A stretch of 64,000 bases of DNA. Origin: a phage. Every line of letters starts with the position of its first letter. Position 1 is the stretch's first letter. The stretch is taken from the sequence record PZ386947.1; one strand, written 5' to 3'. Below the pieces are notes generated by a model that saw nothing but the letters and a program-made list of their open reading frames with translations, did not search any database and was not told the origin of the DNA. Below are positions 426 through 41,811 of the stretch, piece by piece. Made by a program: the position numbers and the translations under genes.

Positions 426-2108
426 TTAAACCATTACAGTAAATCGACCAACTTTCTTCATTTGAAGATGCTGACCATATTCTTGCGGGTCATGGTCTTT
501 ATGTGAAATTATAAAAACATTAGTGTTTTTCATTGAATTTATAATATTAGCTACACCTTTAATACCTTCGGCATCAAATGACCCATCAAACACTTCATCG
601 AGTATTAATGTACTAATACTAACACCAGATACAATAGAAGCAATATCACGCCAAGTAAATAAAAGAGCAATATCAATTCGTGCTTTTTCACCTTCACTAA
701 ATGAAGCATAACTAAAATCTTCACGACCACGGGATTTAATTGTCTCATTAAATTCTTCATCTAATGTAAACACATAATCCGCTTCCATTATTTTAAGATA
801 ATGGTTAATCTGCTTATTAAATAATGGAATGTACTTTTTAATAATAGCACCTTTAATACCAGAATCTTTGAGCATATCAGTCAAAATTCCTCGGTGGTAT
901 TTTTCCATTACTAAATTAGTTTTTGTCTTAACAATTTTATCAAGTTCTTCTTGAAGCAGTGCTATTTCATCAGCATGGTCAATAAACTCAGAAGATGCTT
1001 TTTCTATAGCCGCTTTAACTTTTTTGGCTTTATCTACCGTCGTGATTAGAGATTGCTTTTTATTGCGAATATCATTTGCCAACGACTGTTGGGTTTTAAT
1101 ATTATCTCGGTATTCATCAACAAGAACTTTTAAATTATCACGATGTGTTGAAAGCTGTTCAAACGAATGCGTACATTCAGAAACTTTATCTTTAATTTTA
1201 GAAACAACTTTATCACCGGAACTCAATTGTGACAAACAGGTTGGACATAATCCACCTTCGTGATACATATTAATGACTTTATTATACGAGTCAATTTTTG
1301 ATTTAATTAAAACTGCTTCTTGACCGATTTTATTAAATGCATCAGTCGGGTCTTCATCCAAAACAATATTAACTAATCTTTCGTTAGCTTCTTCTATTTC
1401 CGATTTTAGCGTTCTAGCTTCTTTTGCCAAATCATCATACATATTTTGCAGACGAGTAAGGTTGTCACCCGTTAATTTTTTCTGGCGTTCAACGTTATCA
1501 TTATATATTTTAATTTGTTGGATAATACTATCTTTTTTAACATCAAGCACTTGGTTCTGCGAATTTAATTCACGTATTAGTGCTTTATTAAGCTTATCCA
1601 TTTCAGCTAATGTTCCTACCTCAAGCAGGTCTTCCACAAGCTTTCTTCGCGCAGGGGTCGACAAACCCATGAAAGGGGTATACCCTGCTGTACCAAGGAC
1701 AACAATCTGCTTGAAACTGGCATATGACATTCCGATAAGCTGTTCAAATTCTGCTTGGAAATCTTTACTGCTGGCAGATTCATTAAGACGTGTACCGTTA
1801 ACGGTGATTTCGAAAACGTTTGGTTTTTGTCCTCTTTTGATATAGTACTTTTTCTCATCATATTCCATCCACAGTTCAACTAAAAGTTCTTTCTTATTTG
1901 TGCTGTTTATTAATTGACCTTTCTTTACATCACGAAATGGTTTGCCAAAAAGCCCAAATGTGATGGCTTCTAACATAGTAGACTTACCACCGCCATTTCG
2001 GCCAGTAATAAGAGTTTTTTGAACCTTATCTAATTGAATGTCAACTCCATTTTGACCAACTGACATTATATTTTTATATTTTACTCTATTAAGTTTAAAT
2101 GATTTCAT
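426..2108 (-). CDS. 46: recombination endonuclease subunit gp46 (Rad50/SbcC-like ATPase)
   Basis: 560 aa; Walker A GRNGGGKST near N-terminus, long coiled-coil middle with CPTC zinc hook, C-terminal LILDEVFDG Walker B/D-loop; length equals T4 gp46. Confidence 0.93.
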   Translation of the reverse strand: MKSFKLNRVKYKNIMSVGQNGVDIQLDKVQKTLITGRNGGGKSTMLEAITFGLFGKPFRDVKKGQLINSTNKKELLVELWMEYDEKKYYIKRGQKPNVFEITVNGTRLNESASSKDFQAEFEQLIGMSYASFKQIVVLGTAGYTPFMGLSTPARRKLVEDLLEVGTLAEMDKLNKALIRELNSQNQVLDVKKDSIIQQIKIYNDNVERQKKLTGDNLTRLQNMYDDLAKEARTLKSEIEEANERLVNIVLDEDPTDAFNKIGQEAVLIKSKIDSYNKVINMYHEGGLCPTCLSQLSSGDKVVSKIKDKVSECTHSFEQLSTHRDNLKVLVDEYRDNIKTQQSLANDIRNKKQSLITTVDKAKKVKAAIEKASSEFIDHADEIALLQEELDKIVKTKTNLVMEKYHRGILTDMLKDSGIKGAIIKKYIPLFNKQINHYLKIMEADYVFTLDEEFNETIKSRGREDFSYASFSEGEKARIDIALLFTWRDIASIVSGVSISTLILDEVFDGSFDAEGIKGVANIINSMKNTNVFIISHKDHDPQEYGQHLQMKKVGRFTVMV

Positions 2109-2123
2109 TTTGTATCCAATTGT

Positions 2124-2978
2124 TCACAATGAAGAAAATTCTTTAACTAAAGCCTGTAATGAAGCCTCTATTGGATATCCATTCTTAACTAACATTTTCC
2201 TAAACATTACATGTTTAGGACGATTATATGATATCCACAATTCATACAATTTATCTTTATTATCCCAATGATAGCCTTTTCGTCGAGATGCTATATGAGC
2301 TTTTCTAATCTCCGGATTTTTCCAACTAGCAGCTACTGAATTTGATATAGCTATTTTATATTCAGGTTTTGATAAAGCAGCACGAACAGCCTTTTGGTGT
2401 TTAATTTTATTTTCTTCGTTATTAAACCATTCCCTTGAAGCCATTGAAATTTTTTGTTTTGTTTTAAAATTATTTAATCTTTCTTTATTATCTTTCCTAT
2501 TTTTTGCTACTGAAAAATATTTTAATGCCCTTTCTCTAGCAGCATTTCTATTTTGCGGATTTGAATAATACTGTTGAAGCCTTTTTGATATTGTGTCACT
2601 TACATCTTGTTTTATAAAACTATATTCAGCAGCTATTAAATCAACTTCGGCTAAAGATAAATTTTTATATGTTTTTCCTGACATCATTCTATTTAAAGCA
2701 TTTAGCATTTTTCCATTTTTACCTTTTGCTAATAAGAAGTGTGCTTTAAAATGATTAAAATGACTTAAATTAACTAAATTCCATGTAGATTTTAAATATT
2801 CAGGAAATATTGATTTAGGAAGCACGTGGTGTGCTTCCGTTTTACCTGGAGTTTTAACAGTTGAATTCACAGAAATAAAATTAATGTAAGACTTGGCGTC
2901 TTCTTCACTCAACGCTAATTTTTCAACTAATTCCTTTATTAAAAATTCATCATTAATGTCAAGTTTAAAATTCTTCAC
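2124..2978 (-). CDS. HNH-family homing endonuclease (Mob-like)
   Basis: 284 aa; motif AHHVLPKSIFPEY...VNLSHFNHFKAHFLLAK; C-terminal region resembles ORF 22854-23633; GTG start, first codons duplicate the neighbour gene start. Confidence 0.75.
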   Translation of the reverse strand: MKNFKLDINDEFLIKELVEKLALSEEDAKSYINFISVNSTVKTPGKTEAHHVLPKSIFPEYLKSTWNLVNLSHFNHFKAHFLLAKGKNGKMLNALNRMMSGKTYKNLSLAEVDLIAAEYSFIKQDVSDTISKRLQQYYSNPQNRNAARERALKYFSVAKNRKDNKERLNNFKTKQKISMASREWFNNEENKIKHQKAVRAALSKPEYKIAISNSVAASWKNPEIRKAHIASRRKGYHWDNKDKLYELWISYNRPKHVMFRKMLVKNGYPIEASLQALVKEFSSL

Positions 2979-3190
2979 AAAAGATTCCTTTTAATGTATC
3001 TTTTAGACCATTCTATCATATCATCATAATCTAAAAAGTATTCATCAAATTCAGCCATGCAAACAACGCCTTGTGCTGCTTTTGATGTGATATAAATTAT
3101 TCCAACATATCTAGAATCTTCTTCGGTGTAATCAATATTTGCTATGAATTCATCATTAATGTCAAATGTCGAAAACTTCACAGTATGCAT
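2975..3190 (-). CDS. hypothetical small protein (46.1-like position)
   Basis: ORF track 2975-3238 trimmed to internal ATG (MHTVKFSTFDINDEF...) to resolve overlap with upstream ORF. Confidence 0.45.
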   Translation of the reverse strand: MHTVKFSTFDINDEFIANIDYTEEDSRYVGIIYITSKAAQGVVCMAEFDEYFLDYDDMIEWSKRYIKRNLL

Positions 3191-3425
3191 CCTTAATACA
3201 AGATACAGCCATATCTCGTAATGATTTAGGTGTGTCATTATCTAAAATGTTGAAGTTAAAAGATACAGCCCAGTCAGTGCAGACTGTAACCTTTTTAATA
3301 CAATTATCTTCAACCTCTAGCGGTTCAAACCAATATTCAATAATTTCTTTATGACCAATATCATCTTTTACTTCGCATTCAAAATGCTGACTCATCATAA
3401 CATTTTTAAATTCATCAAAAGTCAT
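3162..3425 (-). CDS. hypothetical small protein
   Basis: ORF track; 87 aa; start overlaps the gene 47 stop. Confidence 0.5.
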   Translation of the reverse strand: MTFDEFKNVMMSQHFECEVKDDIGHKEIIEYWFEPLEVEDNCIKKVTVCTDWAVSFNFNILDNDTPKSLRDMAVSCIKDAYCEVFDI

Positions 3426-4441
3426 TGTGTTGCCTCTACATATAGCTGATTCGCATATTGAATAAGTGCTTCACGGTCAGAATCAGTGATGTCTGGAATT
3501 GCATTAATGTATTCTTCCATCAACGTCTGAAGAGATTGAACTTCAACTTCTTCACTTTCATCTGACTCGACAGAGTTATCAATTTTTGACACAACTCGTA
3601 ATGAATGCACAACTTTTTCTAGTTCAGATTCGAACTTCGTCAGATTTTTGTCTACCTCAGTTACTATAACACGTACTGATAGATTTGTAAAATCTTTATA
3701 GTCAATTTTTCCTTTAAATGGATAATGAATTCTACGATGCCAGGTAGTATTGTTTGGAATAAATTCCATTCGTTCTGTTTCTGTATCAAACATCCAGAAC
3801 CCACGAGGGTCATTCTCGTCACCTGCAGTTAGTGTCCATGGTGTCCCAATATATCTGACGTTAGCAGCCTCAGAGATAGTATGGAAGTGACCAGACCACA
3901 CCTCTTTATAAGTCTTAAGGAAATCAGGTTCAAGACCGTGAGATTTCATTCCTTTATAAAAATAAAATCCATTCAGCTCCCAGTGACCAACACAAAAAGA
4001 AGCAGATGAAGTTTTGATGTGTTCAAGAATTTCACCAGTATTTTCTTCACACATCCAAGGAATTAAATCAATCAAACATCCGTCAAAATCTACTGTAGTA
4101 GGCTTATCATACACTTTAACATTAGGATATTTAGCCAAAAGCTCAGTAGAGGCATTTGGAGTTAAAGTATTTTTAAAGTGCATATCATGGTTTCCTACAA
4201 CAGTATGTAGGGTAATACCAGCATCATCAAGCATTTGAACTATTTCACGAGCGAACTCCATAGTTTTATGTGTGATTGCTTTTCGCACATCAAAAATATC
4301 ACCATATTGAATCCATACAGTAATTCCATTTTTCTTAGAATATTCTATCGCTTGCTTAATTCCATCAATTTGAATACCGCGAATCCACTCATCATCGGCT
4401 TTAACGCCTAAATGCCAATCACCTAAATTTAAAATTTTCAT
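3422..4441 (-). CDS. 47: recombination endonuclease subunit gp47 (Mre11/SbcD-like phosphoesterase)
   Basis: 339 aa; calcineurin-like phosphoesterase motifs (LGDWHLG, GDIFD, GNHD, GHWE, GHFH); length equals T4 gp47. Confidence 0.93.
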   Translation of the reverse strand: MKILNLGDWHLGVKADDEWIRGIQIDGIKQAIEYSKKNGITVWIQYGDIFDVRKAITHKTMEFAREIVQMLDDAGITLHTVVGNHDMHFKNTLTPNASTELLAKYPNVKVYDKPTTVDFDGCLIDLIPWMCEENTGEILEHIKTSSASFCVGHWELNGFYFYKGMKSHGLEPDFLKTYKEVWSGHFHTISEAANVRYIGTPWTLTAGDENDPRGFWMFDTETERMEFIPNNTTWHRRIHYPFKGKIDYKDFTNLSVRVIVTEVDKNLTKFESELEKVVHSLRVVSKIDNSVESDESEEVEVQSLQTLMEEYINAIPDITDSDREALIQYANQLYVEATQ

Positions 4442-19830: not shown

Positions 19831-19856
19831 TTTGTGTTCCTCCGTAGTTGATAGTT

Positions 19857-19890
19857 GTATAGTACCACAGAGGAACGGTCTTGTAAACAA
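19857..19890 (-). promoter_or_regulatory. T4-type early promoter (GTTTAC, 18 nt spacer, TGgTACTAT)
   Basis: minus strand GTTTACaagaccgttcctctgtggTACTATacaactatcaac. Confidence 0.6.
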
Positions 19891-20205
19891 CTAAAAGAAA
19901 CTTCTTTCACAATTTTTTCCACTGAACCACGCACTCACTGCTTTCTTAGTCTCAGGAGCAGTGTTATCCATAAACCATTCAAAGGCAGCCTTTTTATGAT
20001 TCTGGAGGTCTTCTCGGGCTTTAATCTGCTCACGGTCTATTAACACTAACATATGAGCCTTTCTTGTCACCATGGGCTTCTTATGATTTTTTGAATACTC
20101 CCAGTCATTTGTCCATCGCATTGTCGTTGCGAATTGAAATACAGCTTCTTTAATTTTAGTTTCGTAAATTTCACGAGCCTTTGAGTATAACATCATTACC
20201 TCCAT
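19891..20205 (-). CDS. hypothetical protein (104 aa)
   Basis: ORF track. Confidence 0.5.
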   Translation of the reverse strand: MEVMMLYSKAREIYETKIKEAVFQFATTMRWTNDWEYSKNHKKPMVTRKAHMLVLIDREQIKAREDLQNHKKAAFEWFMDNTAPETKKAVSAWFSGKNCERSFF

Positions 20206-20294
20206 TTACCAGTTTAATTCTAGTCATCTTTTTGATGGCAGTCCATATAATCTATTTCTGAACTGCCTTTTTATCTTAGAAGGCCTCTTATGAA

Positions 20295-21281
20295 TTATTT
20301 CAGAAGAGTAACCTCAGCGATTTCTTCCCAACCGTTTTTGTCGGTCATAATAAAGTCAGCAAGATAAAGAGCAGTACGCAGTGAAACATTGCGTAAACGA
20401 TTAACATTGACTTTCATCCATGATAATGCTTTATAAGTTTCTTCATCAGAAAGACCGCGCTTTTGCATCATGTCAGTTGAAAGAATAACATCTTCAACCC
20501 TGACCATAATTTCTTCATTAGTGTGAACACCCAAATCTAAATAAACTGAGCGGGACACTAATGCTTGTAAATGTGGAGCAAGTTTAGTACCACGGTCTAA
20601 TTCGCGGTCAATATCAACGTTTGTGATAAAAACAATCGTTCCTTTAAATTCAAACTCACGCTCAATGCCTTTTTCTTCTAAGTAAGAAGATGCAGTGCTC
20701 CAGCAGACTTTACGGGTCTCTCCGGTGTCCAGAGCAGCTTTCAGAAGATTAAGAATGTCCATATCAGAGAAAACATCCACATCATCAATCAAAAGGACAG
20801 AATTCTCTTCACGATTATTCCAAAGCTGTTCATAAAGACCGATACCAGAGATTTTACCATTAATGCTTTTATACTCAATGTATCCAATATCATTTGCTTT
20901 ATTTAAAGCTTTATCTAAAGAATACGTTTTACCAATACCTGCTGCTCCCGAGATAATTAATGAACGAATGTTTCCGTTAATAATACCATTCGTCATCATT
21001 CCCATAACATTAAATCTTTTATTAATGCGGGTTTTCATATCTTCATACGATTCTTTAACTTCTTCAACTTTTACACCATCATATGAAATGTCTGATTTGT
21101 AAACCCAAACACCGCGACGTTTACCGTCAATTTCAACAAAAACTTTACCATCTCCTTGTGCATCTACCGGAGCATTATCTGGGAACCATTCGCCTAAGAG
21201 CTCAAAAGTTCCAGAGATTTCTTTACCGAAGTAGATACCCTTATTGATAGTTACAGTTTTCATTTTGTTCTCCAATTTCAC
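20295..21281 (-). CDS. P-loop ATPase (AAA-like)
   Basis: 328 aa; Walker A GAAGIGKTY, Walker B VLLIDDVD. Confidence 0.6.
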   Translation of the reverse strand: MKLENKMKTVTINKGIYFGKEISGTFELLGEWFPDNAPVDAQGDGKVFVEIDGKRRGVWVYKSDISYDGVKVEEVKESYEDMKTRINKRFNVMGMMTNGIINGNIRSLIISGAAGIGKTYSLDKALNKANDIGYIEYKSINGKISGIGLYEQLWNNREENSVLLIDDVDVFSDMDILNLLKAALDTGETRKVCWSTASSYLEEKGIEREFEFKGTIVFITNVDIDRELDRGTKLAPHLQALVSRSVYLDLGVHTNEEIMVRVEDVILSTDMMQKRGLSDEETYKALSWMKVNVNRLRNVSLRTALYLADFIMTDKNGWEEIAEVTLLK

Positions 21282-21332
21282 ATTTGTTTTGATAGGGTAA
21301 TAATATCACACTACTACCCTGCTGTAAACAAT

Positions 21333-21596
21333 TTATTTTAATGTTTGCCAAATTTTTACTGCTTCACGACGAGATACTTCTACAGCTCCAAGTTCTACAG
21401 CTTTTTGGCGTCGCCGAGCGTGTAAGTCATAATGTTTAATGCGTTTATCTTGAAACCAAGAACGTTTCATTCCTATTGCTTCTGCCATTTCATGAAGCTC
21501 TTCAATATCTCCATCAGTGAACATATGACAATTTTTAGTTGGATGACCGCGAAGTTTCCATCCATGATTCATTAAAACATCTACGTAAACTGTCAT
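21333..21596 (-). CDS. hypothetical protein (87 aa)
   Basis: ORF track. Confidence 0.5.
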   Translation of the reverse strand: MTVYVDVLMNHGWKLRGHPTKNCHMFTDGDIEELHEMAEAIGMKRSWFQDKRIKHYDLHARRRQKAVELGAVEVSRREAVKIWQTLK

Positions 21597-21742
21597 TGAT
21601 TCTTCTCCAAATAAGTTTCGATAATTTTCTGAGCGAGATAAACTGCATTATCTTCAGTTGCATCTTCTAAGAAACTTTCAAAACACTCTGAAATTTCTTC
21701 TGTGTCAATCAACTTTTTTACTTCAATTGGTGTAATTTTCAT
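21593..21742 (-). CDS. hypothetical small protein (49 aa)
   Basis: ORF track 21593-21811 trimmed to MKITPIEV...; upstream part is a translated promoter. Confidence 0.4.
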   Translation of the reverse strand: MKITPIEVKKLIDTEEISECFESFLEDATEDNAVYLAQKIIETYLEKNQ

Positions 21743-21777
21743 TTTGTTTTTCCGTTTAAGTGTTTGTTTTGATAGTT

Positions 21778-36218: not shown

Positions 36219-36245
36219 AAAAAGCCCCAACCTTTCGGTCGGGGC
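36219..36245 (-). terminator. intrinsic terminator (9 bp stem, UUUC-type loop, U5), copy 1
   Basis: minus strand GCCCCGACCgaaaGGTTGGGGCttttt; directly after ORF 36254-36727; identical copy at 36774-36800. Confidence 0.65.
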
Positions 36246-36253
36246 TAAGAATG

Positions 36254-40823: not shown

Positions 40824-40849
40824 TTTATTCTCCTCAGTAGCTGATAGGG

Positions 40850-40882
40850 TAATAGTATCACTACTAAAACCCAATGTAAACA
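40850..40882 (-). promoter_or_regulatory. early promoter, copy 1 of a 4-copy repeat module
   Basis: minus strand GTTTACattgggttttagtagtgaTACTATtaccctatcag. Confidence 0.55.
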
Positions 40883-40884
40883 AT

Positions 40885-41109
40885 TTATTCAACGCCAGCG
40901 GCTTTCAAAAGTTTCTTAAGATTGGCAACACCTTGAGCAGAAAATGTGACCTTGCCACCTTTTTCACTGATAGAACCAACCAATTTAGCAAGTTTATCAT
41001 TAGGAATTTTTTTAAAATCAGCCAATGTTCCATCAAAGGTTTTTGAAACAAAAGGCAGTTCGTCTTCGCGTCTTTTAGCTTCTACAATAAATTCTTGATA
41101 TGTTTTCAT
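40885..41109 (-). CDS. candidate head internal protein (CTS-bearing)
   Basis: begins MKTYQEFIVEA, matching the T4 internal-protein capsid-targeting sequence; GGAAA SD; own promoter copy upstream. Confidence 0.6.
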   Translation of the reverse strand: MKTYQEFIVEAKRREDELPFVSKTFDGTLADFKKIPNDKLAKLVGSISEKGGKVTFSAQGVANLKKLLKAAGVE

Positions 41110-41143
41110 TTTAGTTTCCATTTGAGTGTTTGTTTTGATAGGG

Positions 41144-41176
41144 TAATAGTATCACTACTAAAACCCAATGTAAACA
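41144..41176 (-). promoter_or_regulatory. early promoter, copy 2 of repeat module
   Basis: minus strand GTTTACattgggttttagtagtgaTACTATtaccctatcaaaac. Confidence 0.6.
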
Positions 41177-41193
41177 ACTTTGTGAAAAATTTA

Positions 41194-41481
41194 TTACAAA
41201 AGATTTTTAGCAATAATCTTGAGATGTGCCGCAGAAATGTGTTTAGCTTTAAACAACGCAGTTTCTTCAGCAGGAGAGATAACGATTGTAGCACCATCCT
41301 TTTTAGCAGACCACCCATCGCCTAGGTAAACAGTACCTTTGATTTCTTCGCCATCAACCAGACTAATCATTGGTTTACCTTCTCGTCCTTTATTTGCTTT
41401 AATAACTTCAGAAGTAAGAGTAGCTTCGGTAATAGTAGAAACCGGGGTAGTTGTAGAAGTAAATTCTTTGAAAGTTTTCAT
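41194..41481 (-). CDS. candidate head internal protein (CTS-like N-terminus)
   Basis: 95 aa; begins MKTFKEFTSTTTPVSTITE; GGAAA SD; own promoter copy upstream. Confidence 0.55.
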   Translation of the reverse strand: MKTFKEFTSTTTPVSTITEATLTSEVIKANKGREGKPMISLVDGEEIKGTVYLGDGWSAKKDGATIVISPAEETALFKAKHISAAHLKIIAKNLL

Positions 41482-41509
41482 TTTATTTTCCTAATTAATT
41501 TTGATAGGG

Positions 41510-41542
41510 TAATAGTATCACAACTAAAACCCTATGTAAACA
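41510..41542 (-). promoter_or_regulatory. early promoter, copy 3 of repeat module
   Basis: minus strand GTTTACatagggttttagttgtgaTACTATtaccctatcaa. Confidence 0.6.
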
Positions 41543-41553
41543 ACTTTGTGAAA

Positions 41554-41811
41554 TTATTTTAAATCTTCTAATCGTTTCTTCATCTTAGAACCGTTCTTAG
41601 CGATTTCGCCTGCATCAGAGCATAATGCTAAAAGCGCTTTAACTTTAGTTTGGTCTCCTTTAAAAGATGAAGGATCAACAGCAGCAGCAAGTTCTTTAAT
41701 ACGAGAGAAAAGACGCTCAGCTTCAGCTAAAGCCATTCCAAGCTTTACTTCCATACCGCGGGAAGATTCAGTAATAGTAGTTTTTGTAGCAAACTCTTTG
41801 AAAGTTTTCAT
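41554..41811 (-). CDS. candidate head internal protein (CTS-like N-terminus)
   Basis: 85 aa; begins MKTFKEFATKTTITE; own promoter copy upstream. Confidence 0.55.
   Translation of the reverse strand: MKTFKEFATKTTITESSRGMEVKLGMALAEAERLFSRIKELAAAVDPSSFKGDQTKVKALLALCSDAGEIAKNGSKMKKRLEDLK

Follow-up and report, generated by a model that had tools for sequence, protein, structure and literature searches.

A putative Mob-like homing endonuclease gene seated on the ancestral start of gene 46 in T-even phages, with a 19-nucleotide repeat as the probable scar of its insertion

Results

The locus between genes 47 and 46

The phage sequence PZ386947.1, analysed here over a stretch of 64,000 nucleotides (nt; the window), carries on its minus strand the co-oriented genes 47, 46.2, 46.1, a 284-amino-acid (aa) HNH open reading frame (ORF) and 46, in that order. 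This is the gene order of Shigella phage CM8 (Tequatrovirus), to which positions 1900–3600 of the window are 100% identical; identity to many T-even phages, T6, RB51 and PP01 among them, is 98–99%, and we refer to the sequence as CM8 throughout. The last 20 nt of 46.2 overlap the start of 46.1, and the GTG of the HNH ORF overlaps the stop codon of 46.1 as GTGA. T4 has no endonuclease gene at this place: its order is 47, 46.2, 46.1, 46, and nothing separates 46.1 from 46, whose start overlaps the stop of 46.1. The product of gene 46 is one half of a recombination nuclease needed for the growth of T4-type phages. An initial annotation of the sequence had described the ORF as an HNH homing endonuclease gene with a GTG start, a description that the RefSeq annotation and PHROG 655 bear out, and had proposed that the gene was a recent insertion which copied the translational start of its upstream neighbour 46.1 or, alternatively, that the likeness of the two starts was a recombination scar. 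We find the scar to be the best reading, and the target of the insertion to be gene 46.

The endonuclease ORF begins on the old start of gene 46

The comparison with T4 and relatives suggested at the outset was made by pairwise and multiple alignment of CM8 with T4 and five other endonuclease-free genomes, and it defined the boundaries of an insert of 870 base pairs (bp). T4 reads ...AAAAGGAATCTTTT-GTGAAGAATTTTAAACTT-AATAGAGTAAAATAT..., in which the GTG is the start of gene 46. CM8 matches T4 up to ...TTTAAACTT, continues with 870 extra nt and rejoins T4 at AATAGAG. The first 18 nt of the endonuclease ORF (encoding VKNFKL) are identical to the T4 gene 46 start at 18/18 positions, whereas codons 1–6 of 46.1 encode VKFSTF. 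Because the insert follows codon 6 of gene 46, the endonuclease ORF inherits the ribosome-binding site, the GTG and six codons of that gene. Its Shine-Dalgarno sequence, start codon and first six codons are thus those with which gene 46 originally began, unaltered. Gene 46 was the real insertion target, and the proposal that the start of 46.1 had been the copied target does not stand. Gene 46 itself has been cut off from this start and now uses an ATG supplied by the insert.

An overlap of 46.1 with 46 (ATGA or GTGA) is present in endonuclease-free phages of five genera, the comparison taking in T4/RB32 types, Gaprivervirus PSD2001, Mosigvirus APCEc01, Karamvirus KMB17, Tegunavirus fHe-Yen9-01 and Gelderlandvirus S16, which indicates that the uninterrupted junction is ancestral. 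Since the old and the new gene 46 start both contain TTTAAACTT, a 9-nt direct repeat flanks the insert. This is not a target-site duplication of the transposon kind, because the two 18-nt gene 46 starts on either side of the insert differ at 5/18 positions (GTGAAGAAT.. and ATGAAATCA..) and the right copy arrived with a foreign flank, the divergent patch described below; no transposase is present. We also considered that the stretch from the endonuclease stop to the new ATG of gene 46 might hold a remnant of the 3' end of 46.1. Only short matches of the TTCATT or GATACA type to 46.1 ends of other genera were seen, so such a remnant is unproven, and a search for it with a 63-nt junction query returned nothing outside the carriers.

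A 19-nt repeat lies in register with two start codons

The sequence TTGACATTAATGATGAATT occurs exactly twice in the window, once in 46.1 (copy A) and once in the endonuclease ORF (copy B; Table 1). With up to two mismatches allowed, 0.01 matches per window are expected by chance, and two or more matches were obtained in 0/100 shuffles; the direct repeat, first described as near-identical, is therefore an exact 19-mer beyond chance expectation. A repeat scan lengthens the pair to 45 nt at 78% identity (2935–2979 and 3138–3182). Both copies span nt 17–35 counted from a GTG, the GTGs lying 203 nt apart at 3181 and 2978, so that the copies are exactly in register. Relatives that keep both copies without the gene had been named as the finding that would dissociate repeat from insertion. 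In the alignments, T4 and the other endonuclease-free relatives hold the 46.1 copy and no copy B, and because genomes without the endonuclease have one copy, the repeat is tied to the insertion. Neither copy is invariant: copy B shows a C to T change in T2, and copy A is altered in Sf24.

The direction of copying can be read from 46.1. Its product belongs to DUF5487 (PF17589 aligned over profile positions 1–66/66, E 1.1e-48), and four other genera have 46.1 homologues in the interval from 47/46.2 to 46. DUF5487 proteins of four other genera, each represented by a sampled genome without the endonuclease at the site, keep the motif F-x-[IL]-[GND]-D-[GE]-[FWY] (FSIGDGY, FNIGDGW, FYLGDGW and FNLDDEF). 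Its retention across distant genera indicates that FDINDEF is native to 46.1 and that the endonuclease is the recipient. The same conservation led us to reject the reverse route, in which 46.1 took DINDEF from an endonuclease whose homologues begin MDIN.. or MIDAET... A deeper homology between 46.1 and the endonuclease N terminus (BLASTP E 4e-4) was set aside, because the score stems from the repeat itself and is not independent evidence. The earlier statement that the endonuclease start duplicates that of its neighbour is thus right for nt 17–35, which derive from 46.1, and wrong for codons 1–6, which derive from gene 46. We infer that the repeat is a functionless scar of recombination, coding for no more than a disordered tail at the N terminus.

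Table 1 Features of the 47–46 region, in coordinates of the window
Feature	Position	Strand	Basis
Gene 47, Mre11/SbcD-like subunit, first of the co-oriented run	3422–4441	minus	ORF list, RefSeq annotation
Gene 46.2, T4_Y03C family	3162–3425	minus	Pfam PF25721, E 2.6e-43; T4 and CM8 annotations
Gene 46.1, DUF5487, 68 aa, GTG start	2975–3181	minus	Pfam PF17589; T4 and CM8 annotations
Repeat copy A, native 46.1 sequence, codons 6–12, F-DINDEF	3147–3165	minus	Repeat search in the window
Captured ancestral gene 46 start: AAGGA, 7 nt, GTG, first 18 nt GTGAAGAATTTTAAACTT	2961–2990	minus	Identical to the 46.1/46 junction of T4, PST, RB32, wV7, e11/2 and Sf24
Endonuclease ORF, 284 aa, GTG start	2124–2978	minus	ORF list, RefSeq NC_054939 'homing endonuclease'
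Left TTTAAACTT copy, codons 4–6 of the old gene 46 start	2961–2969	minus	Coordinates computed
Repeat copy B, in the endonuclease ORF, codons 6–12, L-DINDEF	2944–2962	minus	Identical to 46.1 nt 17–35
870-bp segment in CM8, not in T4; junction slides within the 9-nt repeat	2091–2960	minus	Alignments
Predicted HNH catalytic core codons: E48, H50, H51, N67, H76, H80	2739–2837	minus	Alignment with five Mob-like proteins
Replacement gene 46 start: 15-nt spacer ACAATTGGATACAAA and ATGAAATCATTTAAACTT	2091–2123	minus	63-nt junction query
Right TTTAAACTT copy, codons 4–6 of the present gene 46	2091–2099	minus	Coordinates computed
Gene 46, Rad50/SbcC-like recombination nuclease subunit, 5' end invaded	426–2108	minus	ORF list, RefSeq
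Hyper-divergent patch, ~nt 19–66 of gene 46, residues NRVKYKNIMSVGQNGV; candidate target/immunity region	2045–2090	minus	Identity of carriers against endonuclease-free alleles

The ORF resembles Mob-type HNH endonucleases

Judged by its sequence, the 284-aa ORF is a Mob-like free-standing HNH homing endonuclease gene. Its product matches the PHROG 655 'homing endonuclease' family over residues 1–282 (E 7.8e-45), and tblastn aligned it with annotated mobC at 36% identity (E 1e-21 to 4e-22, over 73–80% of the protein) and with mobD at 30% (2e-11). A word-seeded search of a large protein database returned at least seven relatives. Conservation is concentrated in residues 21–98, where the block E-x-HHVLPKSIFPE...WN.V.L...H...H is invariant among relatives, and the six predicted catalytic residues listed in Table 1 show no variation when aligned with five Mob-like proteins. 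In a domain model with a mean predicted local distance difference test score (pLDDT) of 82.6, H50 and H51 fall in strand 47–51, N67 stands just before strand 68–72, and H76 and H80 lie in helix 73–84; as modelled, this is the placement of catalytic residues that defines the HNH (beta-beta-alpha-metal) superfamily. A conserved N-terminal HNH domain followed by a variable C-terminal half, as the sequence comparisons suggest here, also characterises the Mob type of T4. The protein was not recognised in Pfam, NCBIfam and PDB sequence searches, and its filing as a Mob-like HNH protein is made on sequence grounds, with weak structural confirmation.

Similarity to the family starts at about residue 11–24, and both structure models show residues 1–10 as disordered. 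The first 12 codons, GTG start included, are borrowed sequence and lie outside the enzyme family. Members of an 85-member protein cluster that could be read with their N terminus all begin MKNFKLDINDEF. For annotation, the lesson is that these codons should not be taken for enzyme-family sequence.

An 8-bp GC-rich hairpin (GGAAGCAC...GTGCTTCC) at 2818–2837 sits exactly on the codons of the catalytic EAHHVLP motif. It was scored as terminator-like on the antisense strand, and the homologues in phages F2 and SEA1 do not have it. The MobE coding region of T4 is known to contain an internal terminator (PMC2790892).

Carriers are scattered among collinear relatives, and some copies are decaying

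Among 518 Tequatrovirus records that match the locus, the insert is present in 72, including T6, T2 and RB51, and the junction is uninterrupted in 446. The left junction is the same in the carriers aligned, a synthetic left-junction query splits into the same two pieces on each of the carriers listed, and the 63-nt query over the right junction found a full-length match in the 72 carriers only. In Gelderlandvirus a homologue is present in 5/16 records. Several copies are broken: T2 has a 2-nt deletion and RB51 and RB68 a 1-nt deletion, the ORF being split in both cases. The gene thus shows sporadic presence at one fixed site among collinear relatives, and it has degenerate copies of the kind produced by the cycle of invasion, fixation and decay, both of which are marks of a homing endonuclease gene. 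The initial description holds in that the gene is an insertion missing from T4, but its recency is relative, since the same junctions recur among the carriers, T2 and T6 of the classical phages included, and some copies are already frameshifted. A literature search turned up no paper describing this particular gene; it is probably the single 'other HNH' listed for T2, T6 and RB51 in Table 5 of PMC2993671.

Two database variants of the locus deserve mention. In phage Ac3 (GenBank OK040907; L013, ~2500–3450) the coordinates are those of RB51 and the codons are systematically swapped for synonyms preferred by E. coli (GTTAAAAACTTCAAACTGGACATCAAC...), so that this locus looks engineered or artefactual rather than naturally diverged. 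A 290-aa variant from a Logan assembly (P0021) ends EFLHCEQLDTK in place of EFSSL, at a point corresponding to 2109–2140 of the window. This ending fits a T-run one base shorter (GAATTTTC -> GAATTTC), and the resulting frame would set the stop on the gene 46 ATG as ATGA, restoring translational coupling to gene 46.

Homologues occupy the same site in other phage groups

The nearest non-identical homologues, at 42–43% identity over their full length, lie directly upstream of gene 46 with a start that overlaps the upstream gene. They were found in Escherichia phages F2 and phiEC1 and in Salmonella phages SEA1 and Melville, where they are annotated 'HNH endonuclease' or 'MobD-like homing endonuclease'. 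F2 reads 46.2, endonuclease, 46 and Gelderlandvirus SEA1 reads 47, endonuclease, 46, while their endonuclease-free counterparts read 46.2, 46.1, 46 (APCEc01), 47, 46.1, 46 (S16) and 47, 46 (STML-198). The F2 and SEA1 homologues therefore stand in place of 46.1, whereas the CM8 endonuclease comes after it. Their stops overlap the gene 46 start by 14 nt, and the 19-mer of CM8 is found in neither. The F2 ORF opens with the first 22 nt of Mosigvirus 46.1 (ATGACGAAGACTGATTATGAAA), common to APCEc01; the leading 14 lie within the end of 46.2, and divergence sets in 8 nt further on. An ORF seated on the local 46.1 start argues that grafting onto the 46.1 start happened independently in F2. The SEA1 homologue, by comparison, begins on a variant end of gene 47. 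Both, like the CM8 gene, are tied to a variant patch in gene 46.

A divergent patch in gene 46 accompanies the endonuclease

At about nt 19–66 of gene 46, CM8 and RB32 are identical at 35/48 positions, F2 and APCEc01 at 37/48, and SEA1 and S16 at 26/48, compared with 97–100% over the next ~700 nt. The patch accompanies the endonuclease in three genera, and that of SEA1 is nearer to CM8/T4 (38/48) than to its congener S16. Endonuclease-free alleles of the other genera examined encode ...Y-Q-NIMSVGG..., with Gaprivervirus PSD2001 as an exception (...YKNIMSVGAQ...), and carrier alleles encode ...Y-[K/S]-NIMSVGQ.... These alignments suggest that the conserved endonuclease-free sequence is likely the target and that the variant confers immunity or is co-converted donor DNA. 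On the same comparisons, simple hitch-hiking of donor sequence would account for the patch equally well.

Endonuclease-free Tequatrovirus phages fall into ~358 records with an RB32-type patch and ~85–88 with a carrier-type patch, including T4 and PST, which have the carriers' nt 19–62 of gene 46. As a supplement to the insertion reading, it is conceivable, though we would put it somewhat below evens, that these T4-type alleles descend from carriers that lost the endonuclease by deletion between the TTTAAACTT repeats. Removing 2091–2960 from CM8 yields the T4 sequence exactly, so that T4 may be a former carrier, and both the segment shared by T4 and PST with carriers, against the more numerous RB32-type records, and the affinity of the SEA1 patch to CM8/T4 over S16 speak for this loss. 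However, T4 differs from the carriers at 2045–2046, the distal edge of the patch, and a 9-nt repeat is short for a precise deletion; the T4-type allele could equally be the allele on which the endonuclease first landed, or the outcome of converting the patch alone.

Origin of the mosaic start

We are fairly confident that the arrangement is a recombination scar left by insertion of a homing endonuclease gene. The specific route that we propose, a stage of 46.1 replacement followed by an in-register unequal crossover, we consider evenly balanced between right and wrong. In a first stage the endonuclease would have taken the place of the body of a 46.1 copy, in the manner of its homologues in F2 and SEA1, with the first ~35 nt of a T4-type 46.1 being retained because the first 20 of them encode the end of 46.2. 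The ORF at this stage would begin GTGAAGTTTTCGACATTT-GACATTAATGATGAATT-TTTAAT..., the sequence predicted for the intermediate being CATTTGACATTAATGATGAATTTTTAAT. The starts of 46.1 and 46 are alike (AAGGA, 7–8 nt, GTGAAG), with 12/18 of the first nt identical and both ending in TT. A single unequal crossover aligned on these two start codons would give exactly the CM8 sequence, namely an intact 46.1, the first 18 nt of gene 46, 46.1 nt 19–35 and then the endonuclease. It could have taken place with an endonuclease-free genome, or could first have made a hybrid second 46.1 that the endonuclease later replaced, with the same outcome. Alignment on the starts would explain the exact register of the repeat, which random templated filler leaves unexplained.

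Several observations weigh against this route. The predicted intermediate (46.2, 46.1 nt 1–35, endonuclease) was not found in 50,697 phage records, where each of the 30 carriers listed aligned with the synthetic intermediate as two separate pieces, and where the 71 matches of full length agree with the number of carriers. Its junction was not found in IMG/VR either; the CM8-type junction is itself missing from IMG/VR and the JGI metagenomes, so that these collections are uninformative on the intermediate. No tandem duplication of 46.1 was seen in the genomes matched, which have one matching place per record. Finally, endonuclease homologues have short, variable N termini, some faintly alike (MDINFKS, MNYDRF), and part of the 19 nt could, from the sequences, be native endonuclease sequence that served as crossover homology.

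The missing intermediate would be expected if the insertion took a single step, with 46.1 never replaced. The cassette would then have entered a break at gene 46 codon 6 by illegitimate repair, its invading end copying 17–19 nt of 46.1, 203 nt upstream, through a template switch at TT microhomology. The copied segment is indeed short, at 19 nt, with TT and TT(T) microhomologies at its edges, and endonuclease-initiated illegitimate exchanges have been discussed for T4-type phages (PMC2993671). We nonetheless judge this unlikely, because a one-step event gives no reason for nt 17–35 to occupy the same register in both ORFs, and it disregards both the replacement of 46.1 by the two nearest homologues and the position of the F2 ORF on a 46.1 start.

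Much less probable still is a repeat kept for a function, whether as an autoregulatory operator that the endonuclease binds and that mimics its target, as another protein or RNA control element at both starts, or as a needed N-terminal peptide. A precedent exists in I-TevI, which binds an operator identical to its homing site at 15/20 positions (PMC2988022), and within the 19-mer lie a palindrome, CATTAATG, and the hexamer TTGACA. However, neither start has significant RNA structure (z-scores 0.41 and -0.83), promoter-like matches occur no more often than in shuffled sequence, both copies vary as noted for T2 and Sf24, residues 1–10 are modelled as disordered, and the F2 and SEA1 homologues do without the sequence. 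Nor does identity over 19 nt call for selection, because divergence among the carriers compared is far below 2% of sites over the length of the insert. Chance similarity, to which a region of ~70% A+T might be prone, is negligible in view of the shuffles above and the exact register from two start codons.

Taking the insertion scar as the preferred reading, we tentatively suggest a broader picture, with rather less than even confidence: one Mob-like HNH lineage would have specialised on the first ~70 nt of gene 46 and moved among at least three Tevenvirinae groups, each time with a ~48-nt immunity patch and by grafting onto a local start codon. If true, the 5' end of T4 gene 46, with its Q-type patch (...KNIMSVGQN...), would be the footprint of a lost element, and promoterless homing endonuclease genes would generally be able to enter operons, with translational coupling preserved, by unequal crossing over in register between starts that look alike.

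Predicted expression and mode of action

The T4 late-promoter motif (TATAAATA) does not occur in the insert, which holds 13 sigma-70-like matches against 10.3 expected from shuffles, a background level. No significant RNA structure was found at either start, the folds being no better than those of shuffles. These results speak against an own promoter or a regulatory hairpin for the endonuclease. With no promoter signals in the insert, expression is expected from the 47–46 message, and the endonuclease would be translated from this polycistronic messenger RNA, coupled to 46.1 through GTGA; a review covers start overlaps and coupled translation among the homing endonuclease genes of T4 (PMC2988022). 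By analogy with MobE, the enzyme would nick or cut endonuclease-free alleles in gene 46 at nt ~19–66, and recombinational repair would then copy the endonuclease gene in, carriers being protected by the variant patch. T4 MobE has no promoter and introduces its nick near the 5' end of the gene that follows it, in genomes lacking MobE; its carriers are protected there by a cluster of polymorphisms (PMC2790892).

Neighbouring genes and further observations

The start of 46.1 is most likely the GTG at 3181, which has AAGGA 8 nt upstream and is the annotated start in T4 and CM8; for these reasons it was preferred to an ATG at 3190. The G+C content of the endonuclease gene is 28.4%, compared with 30–36% for 46.1/46.2, 46 and 47, which fits a foreign origin.

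In Salmonella phage S16 (L019, 890–1096) the annotated 46.1 homologue starts at an internal ATG and has 40 aa. Read from a GTG that overlaps the stop codon of gene 47, a full-length DUF5487-like ORF is obtained there (VKLHEFNLGNGWYG...), which makes an error in the annotated start probable. RB51 (L012, 5055–5768), RB32 (L014, 4385–5101) and F2 (L004, 4976–5692) have a second homing endonuclease gene, mobB-like and on the opposite strand, directly downstream of 46, which CM8, T4 and T6 lack. Two different mobile nuclease genes can thus flank gene 46, one on either side.

Elsewhere in the window (40842–41650; 9118; 19844–21771) there are families of exact repeats of at least 19 nt, for example TTGATAGGGTAATAGTATCAC...AAACCCAATGTAAACAA, which resemble the long T4 early-promoter consensus. 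A GC-rich, terminator-like hairpin, AAAAAGCCCCAACCTTTCGGTCGGGGCTAAG, is duplicated at 36219–36249 and 555 nt away.

Comparison with known systems

The locus offers a natural example of a selfish nuclease gene entering a tight, translationally coupled operon without killing its host, and a concrete target prediction, gene 46 nt ~19–66, for an endonuclease carried by the classical phages T2 and T6. Modest novelty lies in the mosaic start, in repeated grafting onto 46.1, in the cross-genus patch in gene 46 and in a possible footprint in T4. The understanding of homing endonucleases in general is unchanged.

The closest parallel in behaviour is T4 MobE, located between nrdA and nrdB. It shares with the CM8 endonuclease an HNH domain at the N terminus, a C-terminal region that varies, the lack of an own promoter and a start codon that overlaps the upstream stop. 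MobE lies directly upstream of its target gene nrdB, which it nicks at nt 122–126, and its carriers have a polymorphism cluster at the nick site (PMC2790892, PMC2988022), the CM8 counterpart being the patch at gene 46 nt 19–66. Unlike MobE, the CM8 endonuclease has gene 46 rather than nrdB as its locus and putative target, uses the first six codons of the target gene while giving gene 46 a substitute start, and has no detectable hairpin sequestering the ribosome-binding site at its start, as judged by folding of both starts.

In sequence, MobC and MobD are the closest relatives within a characterised family and share the E-x-HHVLPKSIFPE...WN.V.L...H...H block, but their C-terminal halves and loci differ from those of the CM8 endonuclease and identity is below 40%.

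For T4, Belle et al. in 2002 and Liu et al. in 2003 reportedly described intronless homing by SegF (gene 56) and SegG (gene 32), which are said to cut in the coding sequence of the neighbouring gene, with co-conversion of flanking markers and marker exclusion between related phages (both studies cited in PMC2993671). SegF and SegG resemble the CM8 endonuclease in being free-standing genes beside an essential or conserved gene; they differ in being GIY-YIG enzymes that make double-strand breaks and whose ORFs do not take over the start of the target gene. Taken as a whole, the predicted behaviour of the CM8 endonuclease fits the MobE paradigm, and the arrangement at its start appears to be an ordinary recombination scar rather than a new kind of system.

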